Part shown: positions 193-38,615 of the stretch, piece by piece
How positions within the stretch are numbered: the first letter of the stretch is position 1
How the letters are laid out: each line of letters opens with the position of its first letter
Source of the DNA: Minisyncoccota bacterium
GTDB lineage: Bacteria; Patescibacteriota; Minisyncoccia; Phycocordibacterales; WO2-35-19
Direction of reading: 5' to 3'
Length of the DNA stretch: 38,615 nucleotides
NCBI GenBank assembly: GCA_036517255.1
Contig: DATDXE010000014.1
Location: 75,994 to 114,608 of the forward strand
Translations under genes and position numbers: made by a program
The notes under the pieces: model-generated
What the model saw: the letters and a program-made list of their open reading frames with translations, nothing else
Databases searched by the model: none
Told to the model about the DNA's origin: nothing

Positions 193-3100
193 ATGTCAGA
201 AGAGTCTAAAGCCAAAAGCAAAATAGCTGAACGAGAAGAAAAAATACTGAAATTCTGGAAGGAGAATAAAATTTTTGAGAAGTCTTTAGAGAAAGTAGCT
301 CCTCATGGGAAGTTTGTGTTTTATGATGGTCCGCCGTTTGCCACTGGTTTGCCTCATGCCGGAAGTTTACTTGGATCAATAATAAAAGATGTCATCCCTC
401 GTTATAAAACTATGCAGGGTTATAATGTGCGCCGTCGTTGGGGTTGGGATTGCCACGGCCTACCGATTGAATCTCTTGTAGAGAAAAAGCTCGAGCTAAA
501 AACTAAGAAGGATATTGAAACCTTGGGAGTAAGTAAATTCAACAAAGAAGCGAGAAATACCGTTCTTCAGTATGCCAAAGATTGGGAGCAATATATTGAA
601 CGCATAGGTCGCTGGGTTGAGTTCGAGAATGCCTACAAAACTATGGACAATTCGTATATCGAATCCGTCTGGTGGGCGCTTTCTCAAATGAATGAAAAGG
701 ATTTGCTTTACGAAGGCAGGAAAGTTTTGATGTACTGTCCGCATTGTGAGACGCCACTCGCCAAAGCTGAAATCGCTATGGACAATTCGTACAAAGATAT
801 TACCGAAGAAGCAGTTACTATTAAATTTCATCTAAAATCTGGTCAAAAGATTGGAGATTTTACTTCAGATGAAAATACTTATCTTCTTGCCTGGACTACC
901 ACACCATGGACTCTTCCAGCGAATGTTGCTTTGGCGGTTGGAGAGAATATTTTATATCGCAGGATTCACGATGCGCCTTTGAGTAAATTTTATTTTGTAG
1001 CGGATGGTTTAGTCACAAGTGTTTTTGGAGAGGATCCAAGATATCTAAAGGCTGAAGTAATAACAGGTGCTGAATTAGCTGGTTTGGAATACGAGCCATT
1101 ATTTGACGTGCCGAAAGTAGGGCAGTCAGATAAAGCATACAAAGTTTATCTAGCCGATTTCGTAAATACAGAAGAAGGTACCGGTGTCGTCCACACGGCT
1201 GTGATTTATGGAGAGGATGATTATCAACTTGGTTTGAAGGAGGGGCTTCCTATGGTGCCACTACTTAACGCTGGAGGTAAATACAACGATGACGCTCCAG
1301 AATTTCTGCGAGGCAAATTTATAAAAAAGGCTGAAAATGAAATAAAAGAAGATTTGGAAAATAGAGGATTACTTTTTGAACGCAAGAATAATACGCACTC
1401 TTACCCACACTGTTATCGTTGCGGTACAGCTCTTATCTACAACGCCGTTTCTTCTTGGTTTATAAATATTCAGAAAATAAAAGAAAAACTTCTGAAATTA
1501 AATGAAAAAATAAATTGGGTACCTGAGCATTTAAAACATGGGCGTTTTCAAAACATAGTTGAGAATGCTCCTGATTGGACGATATCTCGCAATCGTTATT
1601 GGGCCTCACCTTTACCTATTTGGAAAAATGAAAAAGGAGAGAAAATAGTGATCGGCTCGATCGAAGAATTAAAAAAGCACACAAAGAAAAGTGGTAACAA
1701 ATATTTCGTCATGCGTCATGGGCGAGCGCAGAACAATGAGCTCAATATCGCAAGTGGGAAGGCAACAAATTTGCATCATCTCACTGACGATGGCAGAGAA
1801 GCTGTTTTAAAAAATTCTCAAAAATTTAAAGAAAAGGTGGATCTTATCTTTGTCTCACCATTTGTACGTACCAAAGAAACTGCAGAGATAATTCGAGAGT
1901 CCTTGGGCTTGCCAACAGAAGCCGTCATTGAAGATGTCCGCTTGTCAGAATTAAATTTCGGTGAATTTGAAGGCAAGACCATTGATGAGTATCAAAAGTG
2001 TTACCCCAATACGCCAGAGCTTTTCGATAAACACCCAAGCGGCGGAGAAAATGAATTAGATGTTAAGAAGCGAGTAGGAGATTTTCTCTATGAGATTGAA
2101 AGTAAGTTCACGAACAAAAATATTCTCATTATTTCTCATGGAGATCCTGTGTGGATGGCTCAGGCTATAGCCGAAGGGGCAAGTATTCCCAGCATGCTTT
2201 GGATTCTTGAAGAACATTATCCAAAATACGCTGAGATAAATGAACTTAAATTTGTTCCACTCCCTCACAACGAAAATTATGAGCTCGATCTGCACAAGCC
2301 TTATATAGACGAAGTGGAACTTGTGGATGAGAAGGGGAATGAATTGAAGAGGATACCCGAAGTTGTTGATTGTTGGGTCGAATCAGGCTCAATGCCGTTT
2401 GCCGAATTGCATTATCCTTCAGAAAATAAAGAAGAATTCAAATCGCGTTTCCCGGGAGATTTTATTGCAGAATATATCGCTCAAACGCGAACATGGTTTT
2501 ACTATATGCACGTTTTAGGAGTAGCTCTTTTTGATTCGGTTTCCTTTAAAAATGTAGTAACAACAGGCACTATTCTTGCCGCTGATGGCAGTAAAATGTC
2601 GAAATCGAAGTCTAACTATACCGATCCACTAGTTAATCTTGATAAATTCTCAGCTGATGCTTTTAGGTTTTATCTTATGAGTAGCGTGGTGATGCAAGCT
2701 GAAGATCTAAATTTTAGAGATGAAGAGTTGAGAGAAGCTCATAATAGAGTAGTAAATATTTTATGGAACTGCCTTAGTTTTTTTGAAATGTATAAAGGAA
2801 GTTCTGAAGAAGATGTTCAAAAAATAAAAATCAAAGAAAGTGTTTTGGACAGATGGGTTATTTCAAGATTGAACCAGACGATAAAAGAGACTACGGATTC
2901 GCTCGATAGTTTTAATACAGCTAAGGCGTGTCGGGCGATGAGAGATTTTATTGAAGATTTTTCTACCTGGTATTTGAGGCGTTCTCGGGATCGTTTTAAA
3001 AGTGAGAATGCGGAAGAGAGAGGACAAGTGATTCAAACAGGAAAGTTTGTGTTGGGCGAATTTTCCAAAATCATCGCTCCTATAATCCCTTTCATCGCCG

Positions 3101-3663
3101 AACACATACATCAATCGCTCGGTGGCCACGGCGAGAGCGTGCATCTTACCTCATGGCCTAAAGTGGGTGAGATTGATGAAAAATTAATTTCAGATATGGA
3201 GCTGACTCGCGAAGTTGTTTCTGAGGCACTCATGGCTCGCAATGCTGCAGGCATAAAAGTTCGTCAACCTTTGCAGACCCTTAAAATTCAAGATGATAGA
3301 TTGAAAGATAAAAATGAGTTTATTGAATTGATAAAAGATGAATTAAATATTAAAGAAGTTATTTTTGATCGAAATTTAGAAAACGGCTTTTGGCTTGATA
3401 CGACTATTACTCCTGAACTTGCCAGGGAAGGCCATGTGCGGGAATTTATTCGTGCGGTGCAGGATTTGCGTAAAGAGAAGGGCCTGACTCCAGATCAGAA
3501 GGTAGTTTTGCAAGTGGAAACTTCTGCCGAAGGTCAAATTTTCATCGAATCTGCCAAATCCGAAATCTCCAAACCGACCAACCTATCAGAAATAGTTTTC
3601 CAAAACAACGACGGCCCAGAATTGAAAATCGAAAATTATGAATTGAAAATTAAAATTGGGTAA
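193..3663 (+). CDS. ileS: Isoleucyl-tRNA synthetase, type 2 (eukaryote-like), with a nested extra domain
   Basis: FYDGPPFATGLPHAGS forms the HIGH region and GSKMSKSKSNY the KMSKS motif. TTTPWTLPANVALAV is the CP1 editing block. WTISRNRYWASPLPIW and DCWVESGSMPFAELHYP are also present. The 1156-aa ORF is uninterrupted. Confidence 0.95.
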   Translation: MSEESKAKSKIAEREEKILKFWKENKIFEKSLEKVAPHGKFVFYDGPPFATGLPHAGSLLGSIIKDVIPRYKTMQGYNVRRRWGWDCHGLPIESLVEKKLELKTKKDIETLGVSKFNKEARNTVLQYAKDWEQYIERIGRWVEFENAYKTMDNSYIESVWWALSQMNEKDLLYEGRKVLMYCPHCETPLAKAEIAMDNSYKDITEEAVTIKFHLKSGQKIGDFTSDENTYLLAWTTTPWTLPANVALAVGENILYRRIHDAPLSKFYFVADGLVTSVFGEDPRYLKAEVITGAELAGLEYEPLFDVPKVGQSDKAYKVYLADFVNTEEGTGVVHTAVIYGEDDYQLGLKEGLPMVPLLNAGGKYNDDAPEFLRGKFIKKAENEIKEDLENRGLLFERKNNTHSYPHCYRCGTALIYNAVSSWFINIQKIKEKLLKLNEKINWVPEHLKHGRFQNIVENAPDWTISRNRYWASPLPIWKNEKGEKIVIGSIEELKKHTKKSGNKYFVMRHGRAQNNELNIASGKATNLHHLTDDGREAVLKNSQKFKEKVDLIFVSPFVRTKETAEIIRESLGLPTEAVIEDVRLSELNFGEFEGKTIDEYQKCYPNTPELFDKHPSGGENELDVKKRVGDFLYEIESKFTNKNILIISHGDPVWMAQAIAEGASIPSMLWILEEHYPKYAEINELKFVPLPHNENYELDLHKPYIDEVELVDEKGNELKRIPEVVDCWVESGSMPFAELHYPSENKEEFKSRFPGDFIAEYIAQTRTWFYYMHVLGVALFDSVSFKNVVTTGTILAADGSKMSKSKSNYTDPLVNLDKFSADAFRFYLMSSVVMQAEDLNFRDEELREAHNRVVNILWNCLSFFEMYKGSSEEDVQKIKIKESVLDRWVISRLNQTIKETTDSLDSFNTAKACRAMRDFIEDFSTWYLRRSRDRFKSENAEERGQVIQTGKFVLGEFSKIIAPIIPFIAEHIHQSLGGHGESVHLTSWPKVGEIDEKLISDMELTREVVSEALMARNAAGIKVRQPLQTLKIQDDRLKDKNEFIELIKDELNIKEVIFDRNLENGFWLDTTITPELAREGHVREFIRAVQDLRKEKGLTPDQKVVLQVETSAEGQIFIESAKSEISKPTNLSEIVFQNNDGPELKIENYELKIKIG
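1696..2286 (+). other. Histidine phosphatase (PGM-like, branch 1) domain nested in IleRS
   Basis: FVMRHGRAQNN, SPFVRTKETA, LSELNFGEFEGKT and IISHGDPV match the RHG / Arg / Glu / second-His catalytic pattern. The segment lies between the IleRS blocks IGSIEELKK and DLHKPYIDEV. Confidence 0.7.
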
Positions 3664-3674
3664 CCTCAATTTTC

Positions 3675-4217
3675 ATGTATCACAAATACAACACCGAAGG
3701 CATAGTGATGCGGGGCAGTGAAAGAGGCGAGGCGAGTAGAAGTGTAAATATTTTCACAAAGGAGTTTGGTATTATTTATGCCAGTGTCCAAAGTGCTCGC
3801 AGTATCAATTCCAAGTTACGCTCTTCTACCACTGATTTTGCGGAGGGTAACATTACTCTTTTGCGAGGTAGGAATGAATGGAAGGTGGTCGGCGCGGAAA
3901 ATAGGAAGAACCTTTTTTATACTCTAGATTCTTCTCAAAAGAGAGCCATCGCTTCTCGAGTATTTCTTTTGCTTTCCAAAATTACAGGCGAAGAAAAAAA
4001 TACGGATTTGTATGAAATAGTTTCTGATTTTCTTCTCTCTCTTGAAAAGTCGAGTGAGCAGGCAGTCGACGCTGTCGAGCGACTGGGAGTTTTGAAAATT
4101 TTAAAAAACCAAGGGCTTGTGAGTGAAAGCGAGGAGGAATTGGAGCAAATCTCCAAAGATGCAAAACGAGCAATAGTCGTTATAAATAACTCGCTTAAGG
4201 CTGTGTACGAGTCGTGA
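3675..4217 (+). CDS. recO: Short RecO-like DNA repair protein
   Basis: The N-terminal OB-fold pattern TEGIVMRGSERGEASRSVNIFTKEFGIIYASVQSARS resembles the RecO consensus (GE..R, FT.E.G, A.GAR). At 180 aa it is shorter than classical RecO. Confidence 0.55.
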   Translation: MYHKYNTEGIVMRGSERGEASRSVNIFTKEFGIIYASVQSARSINSKLRSSTTDFAEGNITLLRGRNEWKVVGAENRKNLFYTLDSSQKRAIASRVFLLLSKITGEEKNTDLYEIVSDFLLSLEKSSEQAVDAVERLGVLKILKNQGLVSESEEELEQISKDAKRAIVVINNSLKAVYES

Positions 4218-4230
4218 TATAATCGTATTA

Positions 4231-6162
4231 ATGGAAGATTTCAAACACAACGAGCCCTTGGATAGGCTCAAAAGAGGTATATACTCGAGGAAAACTCCTG
4301 ATATTATCGATACTCCACGTTCTCAATTCAAAAAGGAGGAATTTGAAACTCCTCAAAGTTGGGATAGTAAAGGCAACAGCAAGTTCGACGCTCTAGCTTC
4401 TCGCTTTGCCCATGTAGCGGAAAAGCGTCACACTTTTGCCAAGAAATTTCTCACTATTACTGCCTCTCTTTTCGTCATCGCTGTCGCTGTTGCCGTCTAT
4501 GTTTTCTCCGGCGGGGTGAACACCATCTCCTCTAAAAATGTCGATATCGAAGTGGTCGGCCCGGTTTCCGTGGGCGGCGGTCAAAATGTCAGCTTCGATA
4601 TCAAAGCTATCAATAAAAATAATACCGACCTCGAAGCAGTAAAACTGACAGTCGAATACCCTACTGGTGCGAGAAGTATCGACGATCTTTCCAAAGAGCT
4701 CACTAGTCAGAGTTTCAACTTAGGCACAGTAGAATCTGGCGATGAGGGAGTGCAATCAGTCAGCCTTTTTCTTTTTGGTGAAAAGGAGGAAGTCAAAAAG
4801 TTCAACATCGTGGTCGAGTATCGAGTGAAAAACTCCAGTGCTCTTTTTTATAAAGAGAAGTCACATGAGATTTCTATCAGCTCTGCTCCTGTCATAGTCA
4901 CTTCCACTTATCCCAAGGAAATAAATTCAAATCAAAATATTAATTTCTCTGTCGAAGTGGCTTCCAATTCAAACGAAAACATCGAGGATTTTCTTTTGAA
5001 TGTCGAATATCCTTTCGGTTTCACTTTCACTAATGCTTCTCCTAGCCCATCATTCAATAACAATACTTGGAAAATGAGTTTTAAAAGTGGGGAGAAAAGG
5101 GTCATTCGTATTTCTGGCGTTTTGGCTGGCGTCGACAATGAGGAAAGAGTATTCAAAGTCAGTTCTGGTACCGCGAGTCCCGATGACGAAAGGAAAATAG
5201 GTGTCCTCTTTACCTCCACCAACGAATCGATTGTTGTAGAGAAACCTTTTGTCGGCATTGATCTCACGGTCGGCTCTTCTTCAGGTGAGCCGGTAGTTAC
5301 GGGTGTCAGTACAGTGAATGGGGAACTTTCAATAATAAATAATTTGTCCAGCAGACTTTTCAACGTGGGTGTAGAAGCCGCTCTTTCCGGAGGAGCTTTT
5401 TCAGAGAGCTCGGTCTACGCTGGGAATGGCGGCTTTTTCCGTTCAGTCGATGACACTATTTTGTGGGATGCGAGGTCGCTTTCAGAACTAGGTAGCCTCG
5501 CTCCGGGCGAAGATGTCGATTTGAATTTTCGTTTCAATCCTATCGCGTACCAAAGCATTCCTGCTGGTACCTTGTCTCAAATAAAAGTAAAAATAAAAGT
5601 AGTGGGGGAGCGAGTGCTCGATTCCGGCGAGCCCGAGAAAATAGAATTGACCTTGGAAAAAATAGTGCGTCTTGGTACAGAACTTTCTCTCGTTCCCAAA
5701 GTAGTGCGAGTGGAAGGCAATATTGAAAATACTGGCCCCATCCCTCCGAGAGTGGATCAGAAAACTACTTACGCCATCGTTTGGTCACTTGCCAATACTT
5801 TCAATGCCGCCACCGGTGTGGAAGTCATTGCCACTCTGCCTTCATATGTGGAGTGGACAGGGGCCAAAAGTCCGGGGACAGAGGATATAGTGTTTGATCC
5901 TATCTCTCACCAAGTCATATGGAGGGTGCCGCAGATTGTGGCTGGGGCAGGGTACAAAGGTCCTGCAAAACAAGTCGCTTTTCAAGTCGCTCTTTTACCG
6001 AGCGTCAGTCAGGTAGGTACCAATCCTGAAATAATCGGCCCAGTGACAGTGCGAGCTAAAGATAAAATTACGACTATCGATATTTTCTCAAACGCCTCGG
6101 CTCTCACCACTCGCTTCACTGACTCGAGCTTTAAAGAGGGTTATGATAAGGTAGTTCAGTAA
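4231..6162 (+). CDS. Membrane-anchored extracytoplasmic hypothetical protein
   Basis: There is a single TM segment (FLTITASLFVIAVAVAVYVF) after a polar N-terminus. A long beta-rich region follows. No catalytic motif was recognised. Confidence 0.5.
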   Translation: MEDFKHNEPLDRLKRGIYSRKTPDIIDTPRSQFKKEEFETPQSWDSKGNSKFDALASRFAHVAEKRHTFAKKFLTITASLFVIAVAVAVYVFSGGVNTISSKNVDIEVVGPVSVGGGQNVSFDIKAINKNNTDLEAVKLTVEYPTGARSIDDLSKELTSQSFNLGTVESGDEGVQSVSLFLFGEKEEVKKFNIVVEYRVKNSSALFYKEKSHEISISSAPVIVTSTYPKEINSNQNINFSVEVASNSNENIEDFLLNVEYPFGFTFTNASPSPSFNNNTWKMSFKSGEKRVIRISGVLAGVDNEERVFKVSSGTASPDDERKIGVLFTSTNESIVVEKPFVGIDLTVGSSSGEPVVTGVSTVNGELSIINNLSSRLFNVGVEAALSGGAFSESSVYAGNGGFFRSVDDTILWDARSLSELGSLAPGEDVDLNFRFNPIAYQSIPAGTLSQIKVKIKVVGERVLDSGEPEKIELTLEKIVRLGTELSLVPKVVRVEGNIENTGPIPPRVDQKTTYAIVWSLANTFNAATGVEVIATLPSYVEWTGAKSPGTEDIVFDPISHQVIWRVPQIVAGAGYKGPAKQVAFQVALLPSVSQVGTNPEIIGPVTVRAKDKITTIDIFSNASALTTRFTDSSFKEGYDKVVQ

Positions 6163-6203
6163 ATTTAAAGAAGTAAAGATTTAAAGAAGGAAAAATTAAA
6201 AAA

Positions 6204-7538
6204 ATGAAAGAAGAGGATAAATTAAGTAAGATAGTGGCGCTTTGTAAGAGGAGGGGGTTTATTTTTCCTGGCTCCGAAATCTACGGTGGCCTTTCCGGTA
6301 CTTGGGATTATGGTCCGTATGGAGCTGAAATGGCAAACAACATAAAAAATCTCTGGTGGAAAATGTTCGTGACGGATAGAGAGGATATGTATGGGGTTGA
6401 TGCCGCTATCATCATGAATCCTAAAGCATGGGAAGCCTCTGGTCATGTTTCTGGCTTTTCTGATCCGCTTGTCGAATGCGAAAAATGCCACCATCGTTTT
6501 CGAGCCGATCATTTAGAAGACAAAAATACCTGTCCTGATTGTGGCGGAAAATTAGGAGGTGAGAAGCAGTTTAATATGATGTTTAAAACTTTTGTAGGGG
6601 CTACGGAAGACGAAAATTCTGTTTCCTATTTGAGGCCGGAAACTGCTGGTGGCATGTTTGTAAATTTCAAAAACGTGGTGGACAGTATGCATCCCAAAAT
6701 TCCGTTTGGCTTAGCTCAAATTGGTAAAGCATTTAGAAACGAAATAGCTCCGCGAGATTTTATTTTTCGTTCTCGTGAATTTAGGCAGATGGAAGTGGAG
6801 TATTTTGTTCGCCCTGAAGAATGGGAGAAATCTTTTGAAGAGTGGAGAATGGTGATACATTCTTGGATGGAGGCAATTGGTTTAGATAAATCTCACATTC
6901 ACGAATTGGAAGTGAAAGATGAAGATCGGGCACACTATTCAAAAAGAACTATCGATTTTGAATTCGACTATCCATTCGGCAGGAAAGAGTTGTACGGGTT
7001 GGCTTATAGGACCGACTTTGATTTGAAAGCCCATGCCGCCGCTTCCGGTATTGATCTGTCATATTTTGACGAAGATCCGCCAGCCGGCGGAAAAGAGCGT
7101 TTTGTGCCACATGTTATTGAGCCGTCTCTTGGAGTAGACAGGACTATTCTTGCTGTCCTTTCCGATGCTTATACTGAAGATGATCCGCCAGCCGGCGGAG
7201 AAGGAGTAAGAGAATATTTGAAACTGAAACCTGCTATCGCTCCGGTGAAAGTCGCTGTGTTCCCACTTTTGAAAAATAAGCCGGAGCTTGTAGCCAAAGC
7301 CAGAGAAATTTATAAAAGTTTGAAAAAAGAATTTGGGGCAGTGGAGTTCGACGACAATGGCAACATCGGTAAGCGTTATCGCCGCCAAGATGAAATCGGC
7401 ACACCATTTTGCATTACTGTCGATTTCGATACTCTTGAGAAAAATGGAGGCGTCACTGTTCGCGATCGCGACACTGGAAAACAAGAAAGGGTTGCCGAAT
7501 CAGAACTCGTACAATTTTTGAAAGGCAAGTTATCTTAA
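6204..7538 (+). CDS. glyQS: Glycyl-tRNA synthetase (dimeric class II, GlyQS type)
   Basis: RGFIFPGSEIYGGLSGTWDYGPYG, RPETAGGMFVNF, FRSREFRQMEVEYFV (motif 2), VIEPSLGVDR (motif 3) and a C-terminal anticodon-binding domain are present. Confidence 0.95.
   Translation: MKEEDKLSKIVALCKRRGFIFPGSEIYGGLSGTWDYGPYGAEMANNIKNLWWKMFVTDREDMYGVDAAIIMNPKAWEASGHVSGFSDPLVECEKCHHRFRADHLEDKNTCPDCGGKLGGEKQFNMMFKTFVGATEDENSVSYLRPETAGGMFVNFKNVVDSMHPKIPFGLAQIGKAFRNEIAPRDFIFRSREFRQMEVEYFVRPEEWEKSFEEWRMVIHSWMEAIGLDKSHIHELEVKDEDRAHYSKRTIDFEFDYPFGRKELYGLAYRTDFDLKAHAAASGIDLSYFDEDPPAGGKERFVPHVIEPSLGVDRTILAVLSDAYTEDDPPAGGEGVREYLKLKPAIAPVKVAVFPLLKNKPELVAKAREIYKSLKKEFGAVEFDDNGNIGKRYRRQDEIGTPFCITVDFDTLEKNGGVTVRDRDTGKQERVAESELVQFLKGKLS
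7075..7091 (+). repeat. Family B mini-palindrome, copy B1, in-frame in glyQS (encodes DPPAGG)
   Basis: The sequence is atccgccagccggcgga. The same 17-mer recurs at 7183-7199 and 16109-16125, and with one substitution at 35605-35621. Confidence 0.8.
7183..7199 (+). repeat. Family B mini-palindrome, copy B2, in-frame in glyQS (encodes DPPAGG)
   Basis: It is identical to B1 and lies 108 nt downstream in the same reading frame. Confidence 0.8.
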
Positions 7539-7589
7539 AAATTATACTTGTGATAATATCGGAGCAGAACCTTAGAAAGGAGGTTTGCC

Positions 7590-9005
7590 ATGAGAAAAGC
7601 TCGAGTTGTATCAATCGATGAGTTCCGGGATCCGGAGCTTGTCGAAGAAGTTGAAACAGAGCCAATTTCAGACGAGCCACCTCTAGAGGAGCTCTTCGAA
7701 ATTGAACAAGAGACTGATCTTGAAGAAGAAGTCTCTACGCTAGATGAACCTGACAATGACATTGTGCGAAAGTACCTTGTCAGCATTGGTGGGTGGAAGA
7801 TCCTGAAAATGGAGGACGAAGCTCGTCTTGGCAAGAGAATACTGAAAGGTGACCTTTCTGCCAGGAATGAACTTGTCGAGCACAACCTCCGTCTTGTCAT
7901 AGCAGTTGCTAAGAAATATACAAGATGGAGCGGTATGGATTTTCTGGACTTGATTCAGGAAGGCAATGTCGGCCTGATGAAAGGTGCAAAGAAGTTCGAC
8001 TATCGTAAAGGGTTTAAGTTCTCGACCTGCGCCATGTGGTGGATCCGTCAGCAAATCACGAGGGCCATTGCCGACAAGTCGCGGACCATTCGAGTTCCCG
8101 TACACATGAATGGAGTCTTGAGTAATGTCCGCAAGGCAATCCGTAAAATTGCTGCCGGTGAATCCATTGACCAACTCCTTGTTTCCCCAGAAGCTATCAT
8201 GGCTGAAACGGGAAAGTCCAGACAAGAAATTCTCAGGGCTTTGGATATCATGAAGAGATGTGATGTTTACTCTCTCGAACATCCAGTAGGTTATTCGAAA
8301 GGAGTCTCTTTTGAGGATTCTAATTTGGGTGATCTTGTCAAGGACGACAAACCCGATGCCGTGCTTGTTTCTCAAGCCGCGAAGGAGTTGAGGAATCTCG
8401 TTTGTGACCATTCGAACTTCCTCTCTAGCTTGAGGAAAATCGTGAGTAAAAAGGTTTTCATAGCCTTTTGCTTGCGATACGGCATGAACGATGGCTCGCT
8501 CGAGCACAAGATCCTAGAAGAAATAGGCGACCTCTTGAATTTCACCCGTGAGATGGCACGCCAGTCGATCGAAAGTGTTTGGTTTAAACACGGTCCCTCT
8601 TGTGGGTATGTTCGAATCGAATTCGAGGAGGAGCTTGCTAGACGATCTGCGCTTATGGAAATACTTTTAGGTTACGGTTTTCAAACTCCTAAACCAAAAG
8701 TGTTTTTCAAGACTCTTGATCTAGTGCTGAAGTTGATCGTTAGGCGTACCCGCCTCACTTTTAATTTCACCCTTCAAGAATTCGTCACGCTTTATGCATC
8801 ATCCCCCGCCAAACAAGCAGCAGTTTTTGCTATGAGGCAGAGGGGCGTCGATTTCAATGAGATCTGCGCAGTCTGCATGATTTCCAAGGAACAAGCACAA
8901 GCAGCATTCATGATGGCCGACATGGAGCAGGAAAAGAATCCGAATTTCAGGGAAAAGCTCCAGTCCATAGCAAGGCCTATTGGTGCCGATATGTCTAGAT
9001 CGTGA
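7590..9005 (+). CDS. rpoD: Sigma-70 family (primary-like) RNA polymerase sigma factor with an extra C-terminal HTH domain
   Basis: The N-terminus is acidic. Region 1.2/2 reads DIVRKYL...NLRLVIAVAKKYTRWSGMDFLDLIQEGNVGLMKGAKKFDYRKGFKFSTCAMWWIRQQITRAIAD. Region 3 contains RTIRVPVHM. Region 4.2-like sequence is ILEEIGDLLNFTREMARQSIESV. An AGGAGG RBS precedes the ATG. About 130 extra C-terminal residues follow. Confidence 0.85.
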   Translation: MRKARVVSIDEFRDPELVEEVETEPISDEPPLEELFEIEQETDLEEEVSTLDEPDNDIVRKYLVSIGGWKILKMEDEARLGKRILKGDLSARNELVEHNLRLVIAVAKKYTRWSGMDFLDLIQEGNVGLMKGAKKFDYRKGFKFSTCAMWWIRQQITRAIADKSRTIRVPVHMNGVLSNVRKAIRKIAAGESIDQLLVSPEAIMAETGKSRQEILRALDIMKRCDVYSLEHPVGYSKGVSFEDSNLGDLVKDDKPDAVLVSQAAKELRNLVCDHSNFLSSLRKIVSKKVFIAFCLRYGMNDGSLEHKILEEIGDLLNFTREMARQSIESVWFKHGPSCGYVRIEFEEELARRSALMEILLGYGFQTPKPKVFFKTLDLVLKLIVRRTRLTFNFTLQEFVTLYASSPAKQAAVFAMRQRGVDFNEICAVCMISKEQAQAAFMMADMEQEKNPNFREKLQSIARPIGADMSRS

Positions 9006-9007
9006 GG

Positions 9008-9041
9008 GGGCATTTGCATGTTTGTGTGCGAATGCCCTTTT
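9008..9041 (+). terminator. Terminator hairpin after the sigma gene
   Basis: gggcatttgca (9008-9018) pairs with tgcgaatgccc (9027-9037), with one wobble pair. TTTT follows. Confidence 0.6.
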
Positions 9042-9070
9042 GATTTATGAATGCAGTTAGTGTGTTTTGA

Positions 9071-9098
9071 TTGACTTTATTTTAAATAAATTTATACT
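9071..9098 (+). promoter_or_regulatory. Putative sigma-70 promoter for the 9130 gene
   Basis: TTGACT (9071-9076), a 16-nt spacer, then TATACT (9093-9098). Confidence 0.45.
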
Positions 9099-9129
9099 TC
9101 TGCTGGGTTTGTAAATTGAAGGAGGCCTT

Positions 9130-9903
9130 GTGGCGCAAGATTTTTTGGCTACTACCGCAGAGGCTTGGTGGAAAAGGAAGGCAGAGGGATTTACTGGTGG
9201 GATGATCTCTGCCAGTGCCGCTTCTGCCCTTGCAAGAGAGTTAGCGAATAAAATTGACTGCGACGTTCCTACGGCTCTGCTTTATGCGGCGTCGTCGGGG
9301 GTCATAGGCGAATCTCTTGAATCACCACCACTCGGCGCGGGAGGGGTAAAACCCGAAGCGTCGAAACCGAAACCGGAGCCGCTACCGGTTCCACAACCAG
9401 GGAGTGATTCCCCGGAAGAAGATCCAGACTTCGAAGAAGAAGATGATGATCAGGGGATCCCTGATCCAGAAGGAGAGAATCCGATGCCGACACATCCCGA
9501 CGCTGGCCTAAGCGTCAAAGATTTCATCAGGAAGTATTCAGCCGAGTGTGATGGGGGTGACGTTAATCTGCTCCTGGAAAAGAGCACGAAGCTCGGCCGC
9601 AATACAAGCAAGCCGAGCATGGCTTCGGCCAAGTCACTGCTCAAGAAGGAGGGATTCAAATTCTCCTCCAAGTCCAAAGACTCGCCTCCGCCTCCACCAC
9701 CCGAATCTCCCAAAGTTCCGGGGGGAAGGGGCCGTGCTTCTGGCAAAGCTGGGAAAAAAGGTGGGTCGGAGGAATCTATCGACACTCTGATCGCCCGGCT
9801 CCAGGGGGACATCGTCGCCCTGCAGTCCAAGCTCAACGCCACAGAAGCTGATCTTCTTGCCGCTAAGAGAACCAAAGATCTCATCGGCAGTAAGCTCGGT
9901 TGA
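9130..9903 (+). CDS. Low-complexity acidic/proline-rich hypothetical protein with a C-terminal coiled coil
   Basis: A GTG start follows GAAGGAGG. Low-complexity tracts include PKPEPLPVPQP, EEDPDFEEEDDDQG and PPPPPPESP. The C-terminus reads IDTLIARLQGDIVALQSKLNATEADLLAAK. No homolog was recognised. Confidence 0.5.
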   Translation: MAQDFLATTAEAWWKRKAEGFTGGMISASAASALARELANKIDCDVPTALLYAASSGVIGESLESPPLGAGGVKPEASKPKPEPLPVPQPGSDSPEEDPDFEEEDDDQGIPDPEGENPMPTHPDAGLSVKDFIRKYSAECDGGDVNLLLEKSTKLGRNTSKPSMASAKSLLKKEGFKFSSKSKDSPPPPPPESPKVPGGRGRASGKAGKKGGSEESIDTLIARLQGDIVALQSKLNATEADLLAAKRTKDLIGSKLG

Positions 9904-12117: not shown

Positions 12118-13170
12118 ATGGCTGTTTCTTCTCCCAAAATGACGAACATTGCTACGAGCACCATGTTTAGGGCTGTGCTGGTACTTCTTTTCTTTGGAGC
12201 TCTCTTCTACTTACGTGACATTGTGCTTGTGGTTATTCTCTCTATCGTGGTCGCTTCGGCTATCGAGCCGGGTACTCGCTTCTTGTCACGGCGTAATGTG
12301 CCGAGGCTTCTCTCTGTCATCTTGATGTATCTCCTCCTTATCGCTTTGCTTGCTGGCGTTTTTTACTTCCTTTTCTTACCGATTCTAAGCGAAACCTTAG
12401 GTTTTCTCTCTAGTTTACCTGGCTACTTGGGCGATCTTAAAGTGTGGAATCCACTTGAATCTTCTGGTTTTCTTGCTGACAGTCCTCTCCAAGAAATTAC
12501 TAAAAGTTTTTCTCTGGTTGATATCGTCAGTCAGCTCGATACCGTTATCAATAAATTTTCTGGTGGCTTCTTCTCTACCGCCAGCGCTATTTTTGGTGGC
12601 ATCTTTTCTTTCGTTCTGGTCATTGTTCTTTCCTTTTATTTATCGGTTGAGGAAGATGGTGTCGCTAGTTTTCTCAAAATTGTCATTCCTAAAAAGCAGG
12701 AGGCCTATATCATCGATTTGTGGCGCCGCTCTCAGCATAAAATAGGTTTATGGATGCAAGGTCAGCTGGTGCTAGCAGTCATTGTCGCTGTATTAGTTTT
12801 CCTTGGCCTCACCTTGCTTCGAGTGGAAAACGCCTTGCTTCTTGCTGTCGTGGCGGGATTGTTTGAAATAATTCCTGTATTTGGTCCTATTCTTGCTGCC
12901 ATTCCTGCTGTCGCTATATCGATAGTGAGCGGTGGCATCGCTCCAGCTCTCCTTGTCATTGGTCTTTATGTCATCATCCAACAGTTTGAAAACCAACTTA
13001 TTTATCCTCTGGTGGTCAAAAAAGTCATAGGCGTGCCGCCTATTGTTTCCATCCTGGCCATTATTATAGGTGGCAAGCTGGCCGGTTTTATGGGTGTTAT
13101 TATTTCAGTTCCTATCGCCGCCGCTCTTATGGAATTCCTTTCTGATGTCGAAAAAAGTAAAAGTGCCTAA
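12118..13170 (+). CDS. AI-2E family transporter (PerM/UPF0118) permease
   Basis: The protein is polytopic with roughly 8 TM segments. The layout is typical, with LFEIIPVFGPILAAIPAV and a C-terminal GVPP...IIGGKLAGFMGV block. Confidence 0.75.
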   Translation: MAVSSPKMTNIATSTMFRAVLVLLFFGALFYLRDIVLVVILSIVVASAIEPGTRFLSRRNVPRLLSVILMYLLLIALLAGVFYFLFLPILSETLGFLSSLPGYLGDLKVWNPLESSGFLADSPLQEITKSFSLVDIVSQLDTVINKFSGGFFSTASAIFGGIFSFVLVIVLSFYLSVEEDGVASFLKIVIPKKQEAYIIDLWRRSQHKIGLWMQGQLVLAVIVAVLVFLGLTLLRVENALLLAVVAGLFEIIPVFGPILAAIPAVAISIVSGGIAPALLVIGLYVIIQQFENQLIYPLVVKKVIGVPPIVSILAIIIGGKLAGFMGVIISVPIAAALMEFLSDVEKSKSA

Positions 13171-14626
13171 ACCATTTTACATCACTACTACTCTGCCTTA
13201 TGTAAATGCTGATCCGCATGTTGGTTTTGCCGCTGAAATTATTCGAGCTGATGCCGTTGCTAGATACAGGAAGCTTGTAGGACAGGAAATATTTTTTAAC
13301 ACAGGTACCGATGAACATGGTCAGAAAGTTTGGACTGAAGCTGGGAAACAAAACAAAAATCCTCAAGAATATGTCGACGAATATGCTCAAAAATTTATCG
13401 ACTTGCTTCGAGTTCTCGATATTTCCGAAGAAGTACACTTTACTCGTACCACGAGTGAAGCTCACAAAAAAGCTGCTCAATATTTTTGGAAAGTATGTGC
13501 TGATAAAGGTGATATTTATAAAAAAGAATATAAAATAAAATACTGTGTTGGTTGTGAGCTTGAGAAGCAAGATTCTGATTTGGATGAAGGGGATAAGTGT
13601 TTAGTCCACCCACACTTGGAACTAGAAATCCGTGAAGAGGAAAATTATTTCTTTAAATTTTCAAACTATCAGAAGCCTCTTTTAGAGTTATATGAAAAGA
13701 ATCCGAACTTAGTCATTCCCGATTTTCGTTTTAATGAAATAAAAAAGTTTGTCGAAATGGGTCTGCATGATTTTTCTATCTCTCGTCTCAAGTCAAAAAT
13801 GCCATGGGGAGTGGAAGTTCCAGGTGACTCTGATCATGTTATGTATGTTTGGTTCGACGCCCTCGTAAATTACATTTCTTGTTTGGGGTGGCCCCCCTCT
13901 CCTTTACAAGGAGAGGGGTCGGGGGTGAGGTCATTCCAAAAATTTTGGCAGGAAGGAGAAACAGTTCAATACTGTGGTAAAGATAATTTACGCCAACAGT
14001 CCGCCATGTGGCAGGCCATGCTTTTGAGTGTTGGCCTCAAAAACACCGATCACATTGTCATCAATGGTTTTATAAATTCTGGTGGCCAAAAAATGAGTAA
14101 ATCTCTCGGCAATGTCATTTCTCCATTTGATCTGGTTTCTGAATACAGCACTGATGCTCTTCGTTATTATTCTCTTCGTGAACTCTCAAATTTTGAGGAT
14201 TCCGATATGACCATCGAAAAGTTTAAAGAAGCTTATAATGCTAATTTAGCCAATGGTTTGGGTAACTTGGCTTCTAGGGTTCTTACTCTTTCTCAAAAAT
14301 ATTTGGATAAATGTCCGGAAATTCCGGAGGAGTCCGATTTTGTCGAATACTTCAAATTCTACGAGAATTTTGATTTAAATGGAGCCACTAATTATGTTTG
14401 GAATGAAATAGGTAAACTAGATAAATTTATTCAAGAAACTGAGCCATTTAAAGTAGTGAAAGTGGATGAGGTGAAGGGCAGGGAACTTATCTCTAAAATG
14501 GTGCAGGATCTTTATACTATTGCTAGGATGCTAAATCCTATAATGCCAGCGACCAATGTTTTGCTCAAAAAATTAATCAAAGAAAACAAAGCTCCCGAAA
14601 CTCCGCTCTTTCCTAGGAAAAACTAG
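13145..14626 (+). CDS. metG: Methionyl-tRNA synthetase
   Basis: PYVNADPHVGF (HIGH region), KMSKSLGN (KMSKS), ISRLKSKMPWGVEVP and WFDALVNY are present. The ATG at 13145 (MSKKVKVPKPFYITT) is preferred, and it overlaps the permease stop by 26 nt. Confidence 0.93.
   Translation: MSKKVKVPKPFYITTTLPYVNADPHVGFAAEIIRADAVARYRKLVGQEIFFNTGTDEHGQKVWTEAGKQNKNPQEYVDEYAQKFIDLLRVLDISEEVHFTRTTSEAHKKAAQYFWKVCADKGDIYKKEYKIKYCVGCELEKQDSDLDEGDKCLVHPHLELEIREEENYFFKFSNYQKPLLELYEKNPNLVIPDFRFNEIKKFVEMGLHDFSISRLKSKMPWGVEVPGDSDHVMYVWFDALVNYISCLGWPPSPLQGEGSGVRSFQKFWQEGETVQYCGKDNLRQQSAMWQAMLLSVGLKNTDHIVINGFINSGGQKMSKSLGNVISPFDLVSEYSTDALRYYSLRELSNFEDSDMTIEKFKEAYNANLANGLGNLASRVLTLSQKYLDKCPEIPEESDFVEYFKFYENFDLNGATNYVWNEIGKLDKFIQETEPFKVVKVDEVKGRELISKMVQDLYTIARMLNPIMPATNVLLKKLIKENKAPETPLFPRKN
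13894..13931 (+). repeat. Family A palindromic element, copy A2, in-frame inside metG (encodes PSPLQGEGSGVRS)
   Basis: The sequence is cccctctcctttacaaggagaggggtcgggggtgaggt, with 11-bp arms and a 3-nt loop. Confidence 0.85.
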
Positions 14627-35695: not shown

Positions 35696-36073
35696 TAAGA
35701 AAATGTAAGAAAATGTAGGTTGCCGTATGGTTTCATACGGCAGGATAAAATAAAAAATCCCGCCTAGCTCGCAAGAGCGAAGTGGGAGAGGTTTTTAAAT
35801 TTCCTAATAGGAAATTTAAGGGCGTATGGTGGATGCCTTGGCTCCAATAAGGCGATGAAGGACGTAGCTTGTCTGCGATAAGCTTCGGGGAGGTGACTAG
35901 CAACCTGTGATCCGAAGATTTCCGAATGGGGAAACCCATCCTGACGTAAGTCAGGATATTTTACACTTGATGTAAAATGCGCACCCGGGGAAGTAAAACA
36001 TTTCATTACCCGGAGGAAAATAAAACAAAAGTTATTCCGTGAGTAGCGGCGAGCGAAAGCGGAGAAGCTCAAA

Positions 36074-36178
36074 CCCCCACTTCACTGTGTGCTTCGCACG
36101 ACAGTTTCGCGGGGCAAGCTCTTAAATTTAAGGGCCTGCCCCGCGGAACTCGAAGCGGAGCGTAGAGTGAAGTGGGGG
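36074..36178 (+). other. ~105-nt hairpin insertion/expansion in 23S domain I
   Basis: A 13-bp closing helix pairs cccccacttcact (36074-36086) with agtgaagtggggg (36166-36178). An inner helix pairs cgcggggcag with ctgccccgcg. The E. coli sequence as I recall it has no counterpart at this point (after GCGAGCGAA...). Confidence 0.7.
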
Positions 36179-36385
36179 GGTTGTAAGGCAGAGACGTTGT
36201 GTTTACACAAGAGAAGTTAAAAAATTATTTGTTAGAAGAATTTGCTGGAAAGCAAAGCCCCAGAGGGTAATAGCCCCGTAGTCGAAAATAAATAATCTTC
36301 TTTGTCTCTGTTCTTGAGTACCTCGAGACACGAGTAGCTCGGGGGAATCTGCCGGAACTAACCGGTAAGGCTAAATACTTATGGA

Positions 36386-36425
<40 letters not shown>

Positions 36426-37679
36426 TAGCCCGATGAGGGCGGTGAAATAGACCTGAAACCATATGCCTACAAGGAGTCGGAGCGGACGCGCAAGCGTTCC
36501 GTCACGGCGTGCCTATTGAAGAATCAGCCAACGAGTTAATGTATGCGGTTGCCTAAGGAGTGAACCTCTGGAGGCACAGTGAAAGCGAGCGTGAATAGCG
36601 CGAACTAAAATCGTATATATTAGACCCGAAGCCAGGTGAGCTTGCCATGAGCAGGGTGAAATGACTCGAAAGAGTCATGGAGGCCCGAACCCGTTCGTCG
36701 TTCAACGCGTTGGGATGACTTGTGGTAAGGAGTGAAAAGCTAATCGAACCTGGTAATAGCTGGTTCTCTCCGAAAGAGCTTTTGGGTTTGCGTCATATGT
36801 TCCCTTTGGGGGTAGAGCACTGGAAGGTCTGGACAGGGCGAAAGCTCGCTAGACCTATCAAACTCCGAATACCAAAGGTTAAAGTATGGCAGTTAGACGG
36901 TGGGGGCTAAGCTCCACTCGTCAAAAGGGAAACAGCCCGGATCTCAATTTAAGGTCCCTAAATCATAGCTAAGTGCACTCAAGGTGGTGGAATTTCAGAG
37001 ACAATGAGGAGGTTGGCTTAGAAGCAGCCACCCTTAAAAGAAAGCGTAACAGCTCACTCATTCAGAGATTCTGCGCCGAAGATAATCGGGGCTAAGCTAT
37101 GTACCGAAACTGAGGGCTTCTTTGTTCTTAGGAACGAAGGAGCGGTAGGAGAGTATTCCGCTCTGTTGTGAAGGCAAAGGGGTGACCCATGCTGGAACGT
37201 GCGGAAGTAAGAATGTTGGCACAAGTAACCGCAATGCAGGTGAAAGCCCTGCACGCCGAAAGACTAAGGTTTCCTTCGCGATGTCAATCAGCGAAGGGTT
37301 AGTCGGGCCTAAACCGATGGCGAAAGCCGAAGGTGATGGACAGTGGGTTAATATTCCCACACCTATATATGTAGTGATGGAGTGACGAAGTGCAGTATGC
37401 GAGGCGCATTATTGGATTTGACGTTCATGTTGTCAGAATACGATTCAGGAAAATCCGAGTCGTTCCGTTTAATCGGGCATTCAAGCAATGTGGCAATCCG
37501 GAGCTTCGGCAAAGGAGAGTTCGCAAAGCGCGCTTTCAAGAAAAACTTCTAAACTTATACATATATAGACCGTACCGTAAACCGAAACAGGTAGTCAGGT
37601 CGAGAAGACCAAGGCGAACGAGTGAGAGGTCCCCAAGGAACTCGGCAAAAAAGCGACCGTAACTTCGGGATAAGGTCTG

Positions 37680-37785
37680 CCCCCACCACTTTGGATGTTT
37701 CTAAAGTGGAGGGAGAGCAAGAAGAATCGAGACAAAATTAAAGCTCTCTATCACTAAAAGCACGAAGTGTCTAAAGTGGTGGGGG
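37680..37785 (+). other. ~106-nt hairpin at the variable helix (H63-like) of 23S domain IV, expanded relative to E. coli
   Basis: A 13-bp closing helix pairs cccccaccacttt (37680-37692) with aaagtggtggggg (37773-37785). The internal repeat ctaaagtgg occurs twice. Confidence 0.65.
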
Positions 37786-38615
37786 CCGCAGCTAAAGTAT
37801 CTCTGGCGACTGTTTACCAAAAACACAGCTCCCTGCGAACACGTAAGTGGATGTATAGGGGGTGACACCTGACCAATGCCAGAAGGTCAAACATCGACGT
37901 CTTTTTGTCGCAAGATGAAGAGGTGATTGATGTAAGCCCTGGTGAATGTCGGCGATAACTATAATCGTCCTAAGGTAGCGAAATTCCTTGTGTGGTAAGT
38001 TCACACGCGCACGAATGGTGTAACGACTGGAGAACTGTCTCGGGGACCCGCTCGGTGAAAATACAATACCGGTGAAGATGCCGGTTTCCTGCAGTTAGAC
38101 GAAAAGACCCCAGAAGCTTTACTGCAACTTGGCATTGAGGGTATGTTTTTACTGCGTAGCATAGGTGGCAGAGGTTATGTGCATGGTTTCGGCTGTGTAA
38201 TACTCGTCAGTGAAATACCACTCTGTATTGACATACTTTCTAACCTCCGCGGAAAAAACGCGAAGAGACAGTGCCTGGTGGGCAGTTTTAGTGGGGCGCT
38301 ATCCTCCTAAAAAGTAACGGAGGAGTCTATTAAGGTCAGCTAGCCGTGAATGGAAACCATGGCGATAGTGTATAGGCACAAGCTGGCTTAACTGCGAGGC
38401 GTGAGTGCCGAGCAGATGCGAAAGCAGAGCTAAGTGATCCGATCGTACGCGTTAGACGCGGCGAAAGCTCATCTGACAAAAGCTACTCTGGGGATAACAG
38501 GCTGGTACCGCCTAAGCGTCCATAGCGACGGCGGTGTTCGGCACCTCGATGTCGGCTCACCTTATCCCGGGGGTGGAGAAGCTCCCAAGGGTTTGGCTGT
38601 TCGCCAATTAAAAAG

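Follow-up and report, generated by a model that had tools for sequence, protein, structure and literature searches.

A stretch of 38,615 nucleotides from a Minisyncoccota bacterium (contig DATDXE010000014.1, positions 75,994 to 114,608), referred to here as the window, was found to encode a type-2 isoleucyl-tRNA synthetase (IleRS) with a histidine phosphatase domain nested inside its catalytic body. Because hundreds of Patescibacteria carry such a phosphatase inside IleRS or directly in front of it, the two enzymes probably work together, in a way that has not been described. The features of the gene were placed as follows, with amino acid (aa) numbering that of the whole protein and the basis of each assignment given last.

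193..3663, + strand: ileS, type-2 isoleucyl-tRNA synthetase with nested phosphatase, 1156 aa; uninterrupted open reading frame (ORF), TIGR00392
193..1683, + strand: N-terminal part of IleRS, aa 1-497 (first Rossmann half, connective peptide 1 (CP1) editing domain, second Rossmann half to helix IEELKK); alignment with 8C8U, Pfam
355..366, + strand: class I signature HIGH in the non-canonical form H-A-G-S (fourth His to Ser); translation
1684..1713, + strand: entry segment KKSGNKYFVM, with S-G-N-x-Y nearly invariant; homologue alignment
1696..2274, + strand: histidine phosphatase (His_Phos_1) domain, aa 502-694; Pfam, AlphaFold2 (AF2), fold matches
1714..1722, + strand: R508-H509-G510, phosphate-binding Arg and nucleophile His; aligned to the RHG motif of PhoE
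1735..1737, + strand: N515, active-site Asn; 97% conserved, Gln in part of the free-standing forms
1867..1869, + strand: R559, second phosphate-binding Arg (S-P-x-x-R-T motif); invariant
1948..1950, + strand: E586, general acid, 27 residues past R559; aligned to the Glu of RLREIHLG in PhoE
2137..2139, + strand: H649, second active-site His (I-S-H-G-D-P); invariant
2251..2286, + strand: exit segment FVPLPHNENYEL leading back into IleRS, highly conserved (F-V-P-L-P-H-N); homologue alignment
2287..3660, + strand: C-terminal part of IleRS (DLHKPYID, DCWVESGSMPF, KMSKS, anticodon-binding domain, DUF5915); alignment with 8C8U, Pfam
2593-2607, + strand: KMSKS, intact; translation, with KMSK invariant in homologues (68 species-level loci)

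The host protein belongs to the type-2 IleRS: it scored 844.8 bits against the NCBIfam model TIGR00392 (ileS; cut-off 621.4), carried a DUF5915 C terminus, and had the IleRS2 of Priestia megaterium (8C8U) as its top match in the Protein Data Bank. In Pfam, the tRNA-synt_1 match was broken in two around His_Phos_1, its first stretch (aa 17-500) corresponding to profile positions 1-270, and Anticodon_1 and DUF5915 lay C-terminal to the split. When the protein was aligned with 8C8U, residues 7-497 corresponded to residues 6-478 and residues 695-1108 to residues 483-902; on this alignment, the block of aa 498-694 takes the place of a surface linker of about 4 residues. Relatives that lack the insert have 7 residues at the site. 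The claim of a preliminary description of this DNA, that a block of ~197 aa lies between two IleRS core blocks normally joined by a short linker, was thus borne out.

The insert follows a strand and helix at residues 476-496 (PIW...IEELKK) and precedes DLHKPYID (helix 704-707), DCWVESGSMPF, and KMSKS. The connective peptides listed in a paper on yeast IleRS are the CP core, CP1/editing, CP2, and CP3 (PMC11685878), and the loop that hosts the insert is probably the CP3 element. An AF2 model of the whole protein had a mean predicted local distance difference test score (pLDDT) of 89.5 and a predicted template-modelling score of 0.82, with the insert blocks at 90-97 and both junctions at ~91-95; structure searches with this model returned IleRS structures only. 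The junction segments were conserved among 121 homologues, on the entry side at S500 (98%), G501 (96%), N502 (100%), and Y504 (99%), and on the exit side, where pLDDT was ~93, at F687 (92%), P689 (87%), P691 (98%), and N693 (92%). Alignment with the free-standing phosphatases of two other loci (L084 and L088) revealed that the NKYF of the entry segment is also the N terminus of the free-standing homologues. The GC fraction was 0.401 in the insert and 0.391 in the rest of ileS, and there is therefore no compositional break.

The flanking synthetase motifs had been described as intact, and this held for KMSKS and for the CP1 editing block but not for HIGH, which reads HAGS. Homologues displayed HxGS, HxGH, and GxHH at this position. 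Within the phosphatase-bearing clade (L001-L080, P0114-P0233), HxGS/N/T occurred in the nearest relatives of the window, the canonical HYGH was also present, and G-[IVM]-H-H was found in ~36 of 68 species loci, with A-x-H-H in 3 more. The G/AxHH form is the swapped motif reported to confer mupirocin hyper-resistance on IleRS2 (PMC10485003). The window protein itself is not a mupirocin-resistant IleRS of the MupA/MupB kind, as it scored 674-706 bits against an exception-model cut-off of 1900.

The insert was recognised as His_Phos_1 (PF00300) at aa 505-668 of the full protein, with an E value of 1.7e-28 and 100 bits against a cut-off of 21.7, and the 197-aa block at 1696-2286 alone matched the same profile with an E value of 5.2e-30 (100-105 bits over both queries). 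The nesting of His_Phos_1 within tRNA-synt_1, which the preliminary description had expected a profile search to return, was thereby confirmed at E 1.7e-28 by the split in the synthetase match. Membership in branch 1 of the histidine phosphatases followed from the profile score, from catalytic residues in register with those of PhoE, and from the alpha/beta/alpha fold of the family.

These catalytic residues were retained throughout the relatives of the window protein. Among 121 full-length homologues, R508, H509, R559, and H649 were invariant, E586 was conserved in 99%, and N515 in 97%. Conservation was equally seen in the 68 species-level loci, with E586 at 99-100% across both sets. In 314 near-complete domains embedded in synthetases, the full R-H-N-R-E-H set was kept in 291, and R, H, R, and H in 313, in agreement with the catalytic signatures first read from the window by eye. 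To judge from these alignments, the catalytic residues are under strong purifying selection. Mean pairwise identity was 41% for the insert, as compared with 51-61% for the IleRS core and 40% for the IleRS C-terminal domain; the insert evolves somewhat faster than the core and at about the same rate as the C-terminal domain.

Modelled alone, the insert folded with a pLDDT of 93.6. The top folds were PspA (4IJ6, TM score 0.79) and PhoE (1H2E, TM score 0.76), with root-mean-square deviations of 2.1-2.5 A, followed by GpgP (glucosyl-3-phosphoglycerate phosphatase), the ARPP phosphatase of the riboflavin pathway, CobC, and TIGAR; the best structural matches were small-molecule phosphatases of ~200 aa. 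The nested domains were acidic (median isoelectric point 5.7), with a net charge of -9 for the window copy. The insert is a whole PhoE/PspA/CobC-like histidine phosphatase of unassigned specificity. Assignment to a curated phosphatase family was rejected in each case. The insert scored below cut-off as a phosphoglycerate mutase of the dPGM type (dPGM_arch, 67.9 versus 225; pgm_1, 23.8 versus 81.7; gpmB (GpmB), 34 versus 261), as the alpha-ribazole phosphatase CobC (TIGR03162, 72.1 versus 162.9), as the phosphoserine phosphatase PspA (NF045917, 58.7 versus 350), and as the phosphohistidine phosphatase SixA (TIGR00249, 37.2 versus 74.5, with only the first 74 residues matching). Neither the insert nor its free-standing relatives matched any PADLOC model of anti-phage defence.

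To examine how widely the architecture occurs, one genome per species (GTDB) was scanned with a query composed of the insert and its IleRS flanks. At least 415 stretches encoded a relative of the nested form, and the best 80 of the 415 were examined in detail. All 80 spanned both junctions, and all were labelled as metagenome-assembled genomes (MAGs) of the Patescibacteria/Parcubacteria type. The nested gene was a single ORF of more than 1100 aa in 67 of them, was cut by a contig end in 10, and was interrupted in 3. PF00300 was present in all 120 of the best full-length database matches (54-65% identity, 1115-1218 aa), which bore generic source names such as 'class I tRNA ligase family protein' and 'isoleucine-tRNA ligase'. 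An exhaustive search of representatives with the insert gave 8992 matches at E<1e-3 and 868 at E<1e-10, and nearly all of the long matches carried the domain at the site used in the window.

These results bear on several expectations of the preliminary description. The continuous reading frame that it took as a sign of a functional gene and not a pseudogene was upheld, both by the single ORF at 193..3663 and by the 67 intact loci. The rarity that it implied was not: the architecture is shared by the 415 or more stretches and by all 120 best database matches. Its suggestion of novelty survived in part, as no paper describing the architecture was found, but automated annotation already lists the domains.

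Irregular copies were also observed. The nested ileS of three loci (L041, L065, and L067) was interrupted, and in three others (P0010, P0021, and P0026) it was called as short fragments on long contigs; some of the breaks lay inside the phosphatase domain, and these irregularities could be frameshift errors or real splits. In a Berkelbacteria-labelled MAG (L064, ORF 969-4799), an extra 55-residue phosphatase N terminus preceded the full nested domain, a partial internal duplication. Another locus (L144, CAYUUM010000002.1, ~3000-9300) carried a tandem ileS pair, each with a nested phosphatase, of which the second copy was very divergent.

A free-standing form of the same phosphatase was found as a gene partner of ileS. 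These relatives of ~190 aa were 35-39% identical to the insert, shared its NKYF-x-x-RHG and ISHGDP-W motifs, and were similar to it from end to end. In one case (P0044) the phosphatase gene ended 1 nucleotide (nt) upstream of an insert-less ileS of 1015 aa; in another (P0052) two phosphatase genes in tandem, of which it was the first, preceded an ileS of 989 aa. Eight free-standing query sequences retrieved 483 relatives from species genomes, of which the best 80 were examined. The phosphatase was nested in IleRS in 21 of these loci. In 48 it was free-standing and directly followed by ileS in the same orientation, in 47 of them within ~40 nt of the stop codon and often overlapping. No ileS lay within 4.5 kb downstream in 8, and the remaining 3 could not be evaluated since the locus ended. 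Thus, in 48 of 56 evaluable genomes the free-standing phosphatase was directly upstream of an insert-less ileS.

No second phosphatase was found within ~4 kb at the 80 nested loci or in the window. Synteny counts revealed that the neighbourhood argS-[phosphatase]-ileS-recO-DUF11 was common to the nested and the free-standing forms, with Ca. Microsyncoccus archaeolyticus PMX.50 (L107) as an example of the operon form. Several transitions between nesting and adjacency appear to have taken place, at least 6 by parsimony on rough neighbour-joining trees whose short internal branches led us not to rely on this count.

Two further arrangements were noted at free-standing loci. Where the phosphatase was away from ileS, in L099 (3740-4492) and L100 (3753-4508), reading by eye indicated that it overlapped the end of a putative sugar-phosphate nucleotidyltransferase gene. 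In L084-L086 (3072-4841), genes of toxin-antitoxin type (HEPN plus nucleotidyltransferase; AbiEii plus DUF6922) lay between argS and the phosphatase-ileS pair.

Nesting was not confined to a single loop. Three IleRS (P0294, P0341, and P0357) carried 2-3 phosphatase domains at other loops, namely after DLHKxxVD, after HYPFxN, and before the anticodon domain, and overall nesting recurred, with 3-4 different loops used and 2-4 copies present. A fragment of a valyl-tRNA synthetase (ValRS; P0279, the same as L082/L083 366-3851), present on two metagenome contigs, contained four histidine phosphatase domains, one after a QWF motif and three in tandem after IPVWY. All of these copies kept RHG, R, E, and H except the fourth, which was cut off ahead of the second His because the ORF ends inside it. 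A pattern scan of species-representative genomes found no close relative of a ValRS with nested phosphatases.

A second large group of phosphatase-bearing IleRS was labelled Gracilibacteria, Peregrinibacteria, or Peribacteria, with PF00300 in ~107 of the 120 best matches to P0357. Many of these IleRS added further nested domains: GNAT, an AAA_33/zeta-like P-loop kinase, a serine hydrolase, DUF559, or a Y1 transposase. A P-loop AAA_33 kinase was nested together with the phosphatase in P0454, P0460, and P0438, and a GNAT domain occupied a nearby loop in P0331 and P0460. In P0437, a phosphatase of the HAD type was found at one of these loops, and the protein had no histidine phosphatase. The occurrence of two unrelated phosphatase folds in the same host argues that phosphatase activity itself is selected. 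Eight of these proteins (P0454, P0460, P0437, P0427, P0438, P0389, P0331, and P0376) were IleRS of 1370-1860 aa, labelled Gracilibacteria/Peregrinibacteria as a group, with multiple nested domains at 3-4 loops. In such multi-domain IleRS, DUF559 is an endonuclease, and an IS200-like Y1 transposase was seen inside CP1.

The window protein was compared with known systems that share one or more of its properties. PhoE/YhfR of Geobacillus (1EBB/1H2E), a broad-specificity enzyme, and the phosphoserine phosphatase PspA of Hydrogenobacter (4IJ5/4IJ6) have the fold of the insert and its size of ~200 aa, with catalytic residues in register. However, identity was only 23-25%, and these enzymes are free-standing, whereas the insert is nested or, in sister genomes, coupled to ileS. 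With type-2 IleRS (P. megaterium IleRS2, 8C8U; T. thermophilus, 1ILE) the whole synthetase body aligned (714 bits; fold TM score ~0.8 on the target), including KMSKS, the CP1 editing block, and the type-2 C terminus; the window protein differs in having 197 residues in place of a 4-residue linker and HAGS in place of HIGH.

A curated precedent for an IleRS with an extra enzymatic domain exists in NF040702 ('isoleucine--tRNA ligase, N-acetyltransferase domain-containing'), but the window protein scored 315 against its cut-off of 1999 and had no GNAT match, its extra domain being a phosphatase. The Rv2228c-type RNase H/CobC-like acid phosphatase (NF005567) unites a branch-1 phosphatase with a nucleic-acid enzyme in one fusion protein. 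This model was among the best NCBIfam matches at 71 bits, below its cut-off of 326, and differs in being an end-to-end fusion with another partner enzyme. Pairing of a P-loop kinase with a phosphatase is known from 6-phosphofructo-2-kinase/fructose-2,6-bisphosphatase and from T4 polynucleotide kinase-phosphatase. Some relatives, but not the window protein, combine AAA_33 with His_Phos or with HAD, and in these the host is a synthetase. Having no kinase domain in Pfam, the window protein falls outside the polynucleotide kinase-phosphatase type of RNA end-healing enzymes.

The CP1 editing domain and the leucine-specific domain of class Ia synthetases are whole domains that sit in loops of the Rossmann fold and leave catalysis unbroken; these modules are of ancient origin, specific to synthetases, and directed at aminoacyl-tRNA. 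The insert is likewise a nested whole domain, but it is a generic phosphatase of metabolic type that also exists as a separate gene. Automatic JGI names for some relatives read 'isoleucyl-tRNA synthetase/phosphohistidine phosphatase SixA/...GNAT', and full-text literature searches found no description of a phosphatase in or beside IleRS. The nested phosphatase is thus a real, conserved, widespread, and previously undescribed variant that belongs both to branch 1 of the histidine phosphatases and to the type-2 IleRS.

The window encodes two other synthetases, and neither has an inserted domain. The neighbouring features were as follows.

3675..6162, + strand: recO-like and DUF11 genes downstream of ileS; Pfam, synteny
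6204-7538: class II synthetase with HGTP anticodon domain, no inserted domain
13070-14626: methionyl-tRNA synthetase (MetRS), no inserted domain

The true start of MetRS is probably further downstream, because the listed ORF overlaps an upstream transporter ORF by ~100 nt. The only Rfam matches were to a bacterial 23S rRNA gene, at 35806-38615, which continues past the 3' end of the window; no regulatory RNA was found near ileS, and no tRNA gene in the whole 38.6 kb.

Under the interpretation that we favour, a gene of ~190 aa that in sister Patescibacteria ends where ileS begins would here have moved in frame into a surface loop of IleRS, between helix IEELKK and DLHKPYID of the catalytic body. 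IleRS would stay a working synthetase, and the phosphatase would fold as its own, rigidly docked domain. It would hydrolyse a phosphomonoester via a phospho-His509 intermediate, with R508, R559, and H649 holding the phosphate and E586 acting as the acid. As an accessory dedicated to IleRS and made with it in a fixed 1:1 amount, it would act on a small soluble phosphomonoester resembling a nucleotide or an amino acid, one either linked to the reaction of IleRS or competing for its active site, and it would serve as a local clearing or detoxifying enzyme. A small soluble substrate is favoured because the closest folds are small-molecule enzymes and the domain is acidic, properties that favour such a substrate over direct RNA binding, and also because sister genomes encode the phosphatase as a small protein of its own and insertion is tolerated at many sites. 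The operon-linked homologues and the replacement of the domain with a HAD phosphatase support a real functional link to IleRS. The fold, the catalytic residues, their conservation, and the genetic coupling to ileS in fused and unfused form are established by the data above; activity, the partnership with IleRS, and the class of substrate are inferred. Taken as a whole, the statement that the insert is an active phosphomonoesterase and a dedicated partner of IleRS with a small soluble substrate is one that we believe and doubt in equal measure.

Several observations weigh against it. We know of no phosphorylated metabolite or inhibitor specific to IleRS, and specificity cannot be read from homology, as all scores against curated phosphatase equivalogs are far below cut-off. 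Further, 8 of the 56 evaluable free-standing copies are not beside ileS. The mobile-type cargo (Y1 transposase, DUF559) and the varied sites indicate that the loops tolerate cargo, and some of the association could therefore be permissive.

A broader interpretation, which we put forward tentatively and regard as somewhat unlikely, is that the IleRS of Patescibacteria serves as the scaffold of an inbuilt kit, for protection or quality control, that repairs or detoxifies a threat specific to isoleucine charging. The core of the kit would be the phosphatase, nested or next door and of either of two unrelated folds, while kinase, acetyltransferase, and hydrolase modules would be optional. A damaged tRNA(Ile) end and an inhibitor that mimics Ile-AMP are examples of the threats it might meet.

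The permissiveness of the loops is also the starting point for the best surviving rival to a dedicated partnership, that the insert is an ordinary metabolic phosphatase, for example for a sugar phosphate or an amino-acid phosphate, with no mechanistic link to IleRS. Such an enzyme would merely be co-expressed with ileS in streamlined genomes and tolerated after landing in permissive loops. Many loops accept the domain, and the same loops take GNAT, kinase, serine hydrolase, DUF559, and Y1 transposase; the 8 copies located elsewhere and the similarity to broad-specificity PhoE are consistent with this explanation as well. However, in 47 species-level genomes the two genes form a tight pair that abuts or overlaps, independent gains of nesting have happened repeatedly, a HAD phosphatase can substitute, up to four active-looking copies are found in a single synthetase, and the entry and exit junction segments are conserved. 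We consider a mere hitch-hiker unlikely.

The co-nested kinases bring in a second rival, healing of tRNA ends, in which the domain would clear the CCA 3' end of tRNA(Ile) held by IleRS of a 2'/3'-phosphate, a pyrophosphate, or a cyclic phosphate that has been opened, and so restore a chargeable end. IleRS needs a tRNA whose A76 has its 2'/3'-OH free, some toxins are known to pyrophosphorylate the CCA ends of tRNA, and the AAA_33 kinase together with a phosphatase in P0454, P0460, and P0438, or the HAD phosphatase of P0437, recalls the kinase and HAD phosphatase pairing of the T4 enzyme. Such damage would strike all tRNAs, yet only IleRS, and rarely ValRS, has the domain, and the MetRS and class II synthetase of the same window are without it. 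The window protein has no kinase, the phosphatase also exists as a separate small protein without an RNA-binding module, the domain is acidic, and its closest folds are small-molecule phosphatases; to our knowledge, no branch-1 histidine phosphatase acts on RNA ends. End healing is accordingly quite unlikely in our estimation.

The insertion lies ~100 residues ahead of KMSKS in sequence, and the domain could in principle be a protein phosphatase that relieves IleRS itself of a phosphate, regulatory or imposed by a toxin, for instance on its KMSKS loop. Protein phosphatases are known in branch 1 (SixA, PGAM5, and Sts-1), and the class I synthetases GltX and TrpS are phosphorylated in the KMSKS region by kinases of the HipA type. 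The low and partial SixA match (37 versus 74.5 bits, first 74 residues only), nearest folds that are small-molecule enzymes, and variable insertion sites, which speak against a precise geometry, make this highly improbable, and we know of no kinase that targets IleRS. Less credible still is a non-catalytic module, the fold being retained only as a structural spacer or as a pad that binds phosphate or tRNA: the junction segments are conserved and confidently modelled, as such a role would suggest, but virtually every copy, whether nested or free-standing, retains E586 and the nucleophile His, and the domain is acidic. An assembly chimera or decaying pseudogene, at which only the 3 interrupted ORFs among 80 related loci (L041, L065, L067) and a few fragments on long contigs might hint, is refuted by the cross-assembly evidence and can be set aside with near certainty, because at least 415 species-representative Patescibacteria stretches from independent assemblies encode the nested gene with the same junctions as one uninterrupted gene, 67 of 80 ORFs are intact, the GC content has no break, and the functional residues are invariant.

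Aminoacyl-tRNA synthetases are among the best-studied enzymes, and their known nested domains serve editing or tRNA binding. No described case was found of a conserved, catalytically intact-looking phosphatase inside the catalytic body of a synthetase. The operon mirror of the nested form and its substitution by an unrelated fold point to a selected phosphatase activity that is attached to isoleucine charging and is not required by current models of the reaction. The loops that accept the domain offer permissive sites, provided by nature, at which domains could be engineered into class I synthetases, and metabolic reconstructions should be read with care, as the domain may be counted as a 'probable phosphoglycerate mutase'. 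If true, the protective-kit interpretation would define a repair or resistance system of a new class, one coupled to a synthetase. Collectively, the nested and operon-linked phosphatases provide a testable handle on the unexplained biology of candidate-phyla-radiation bacteria.

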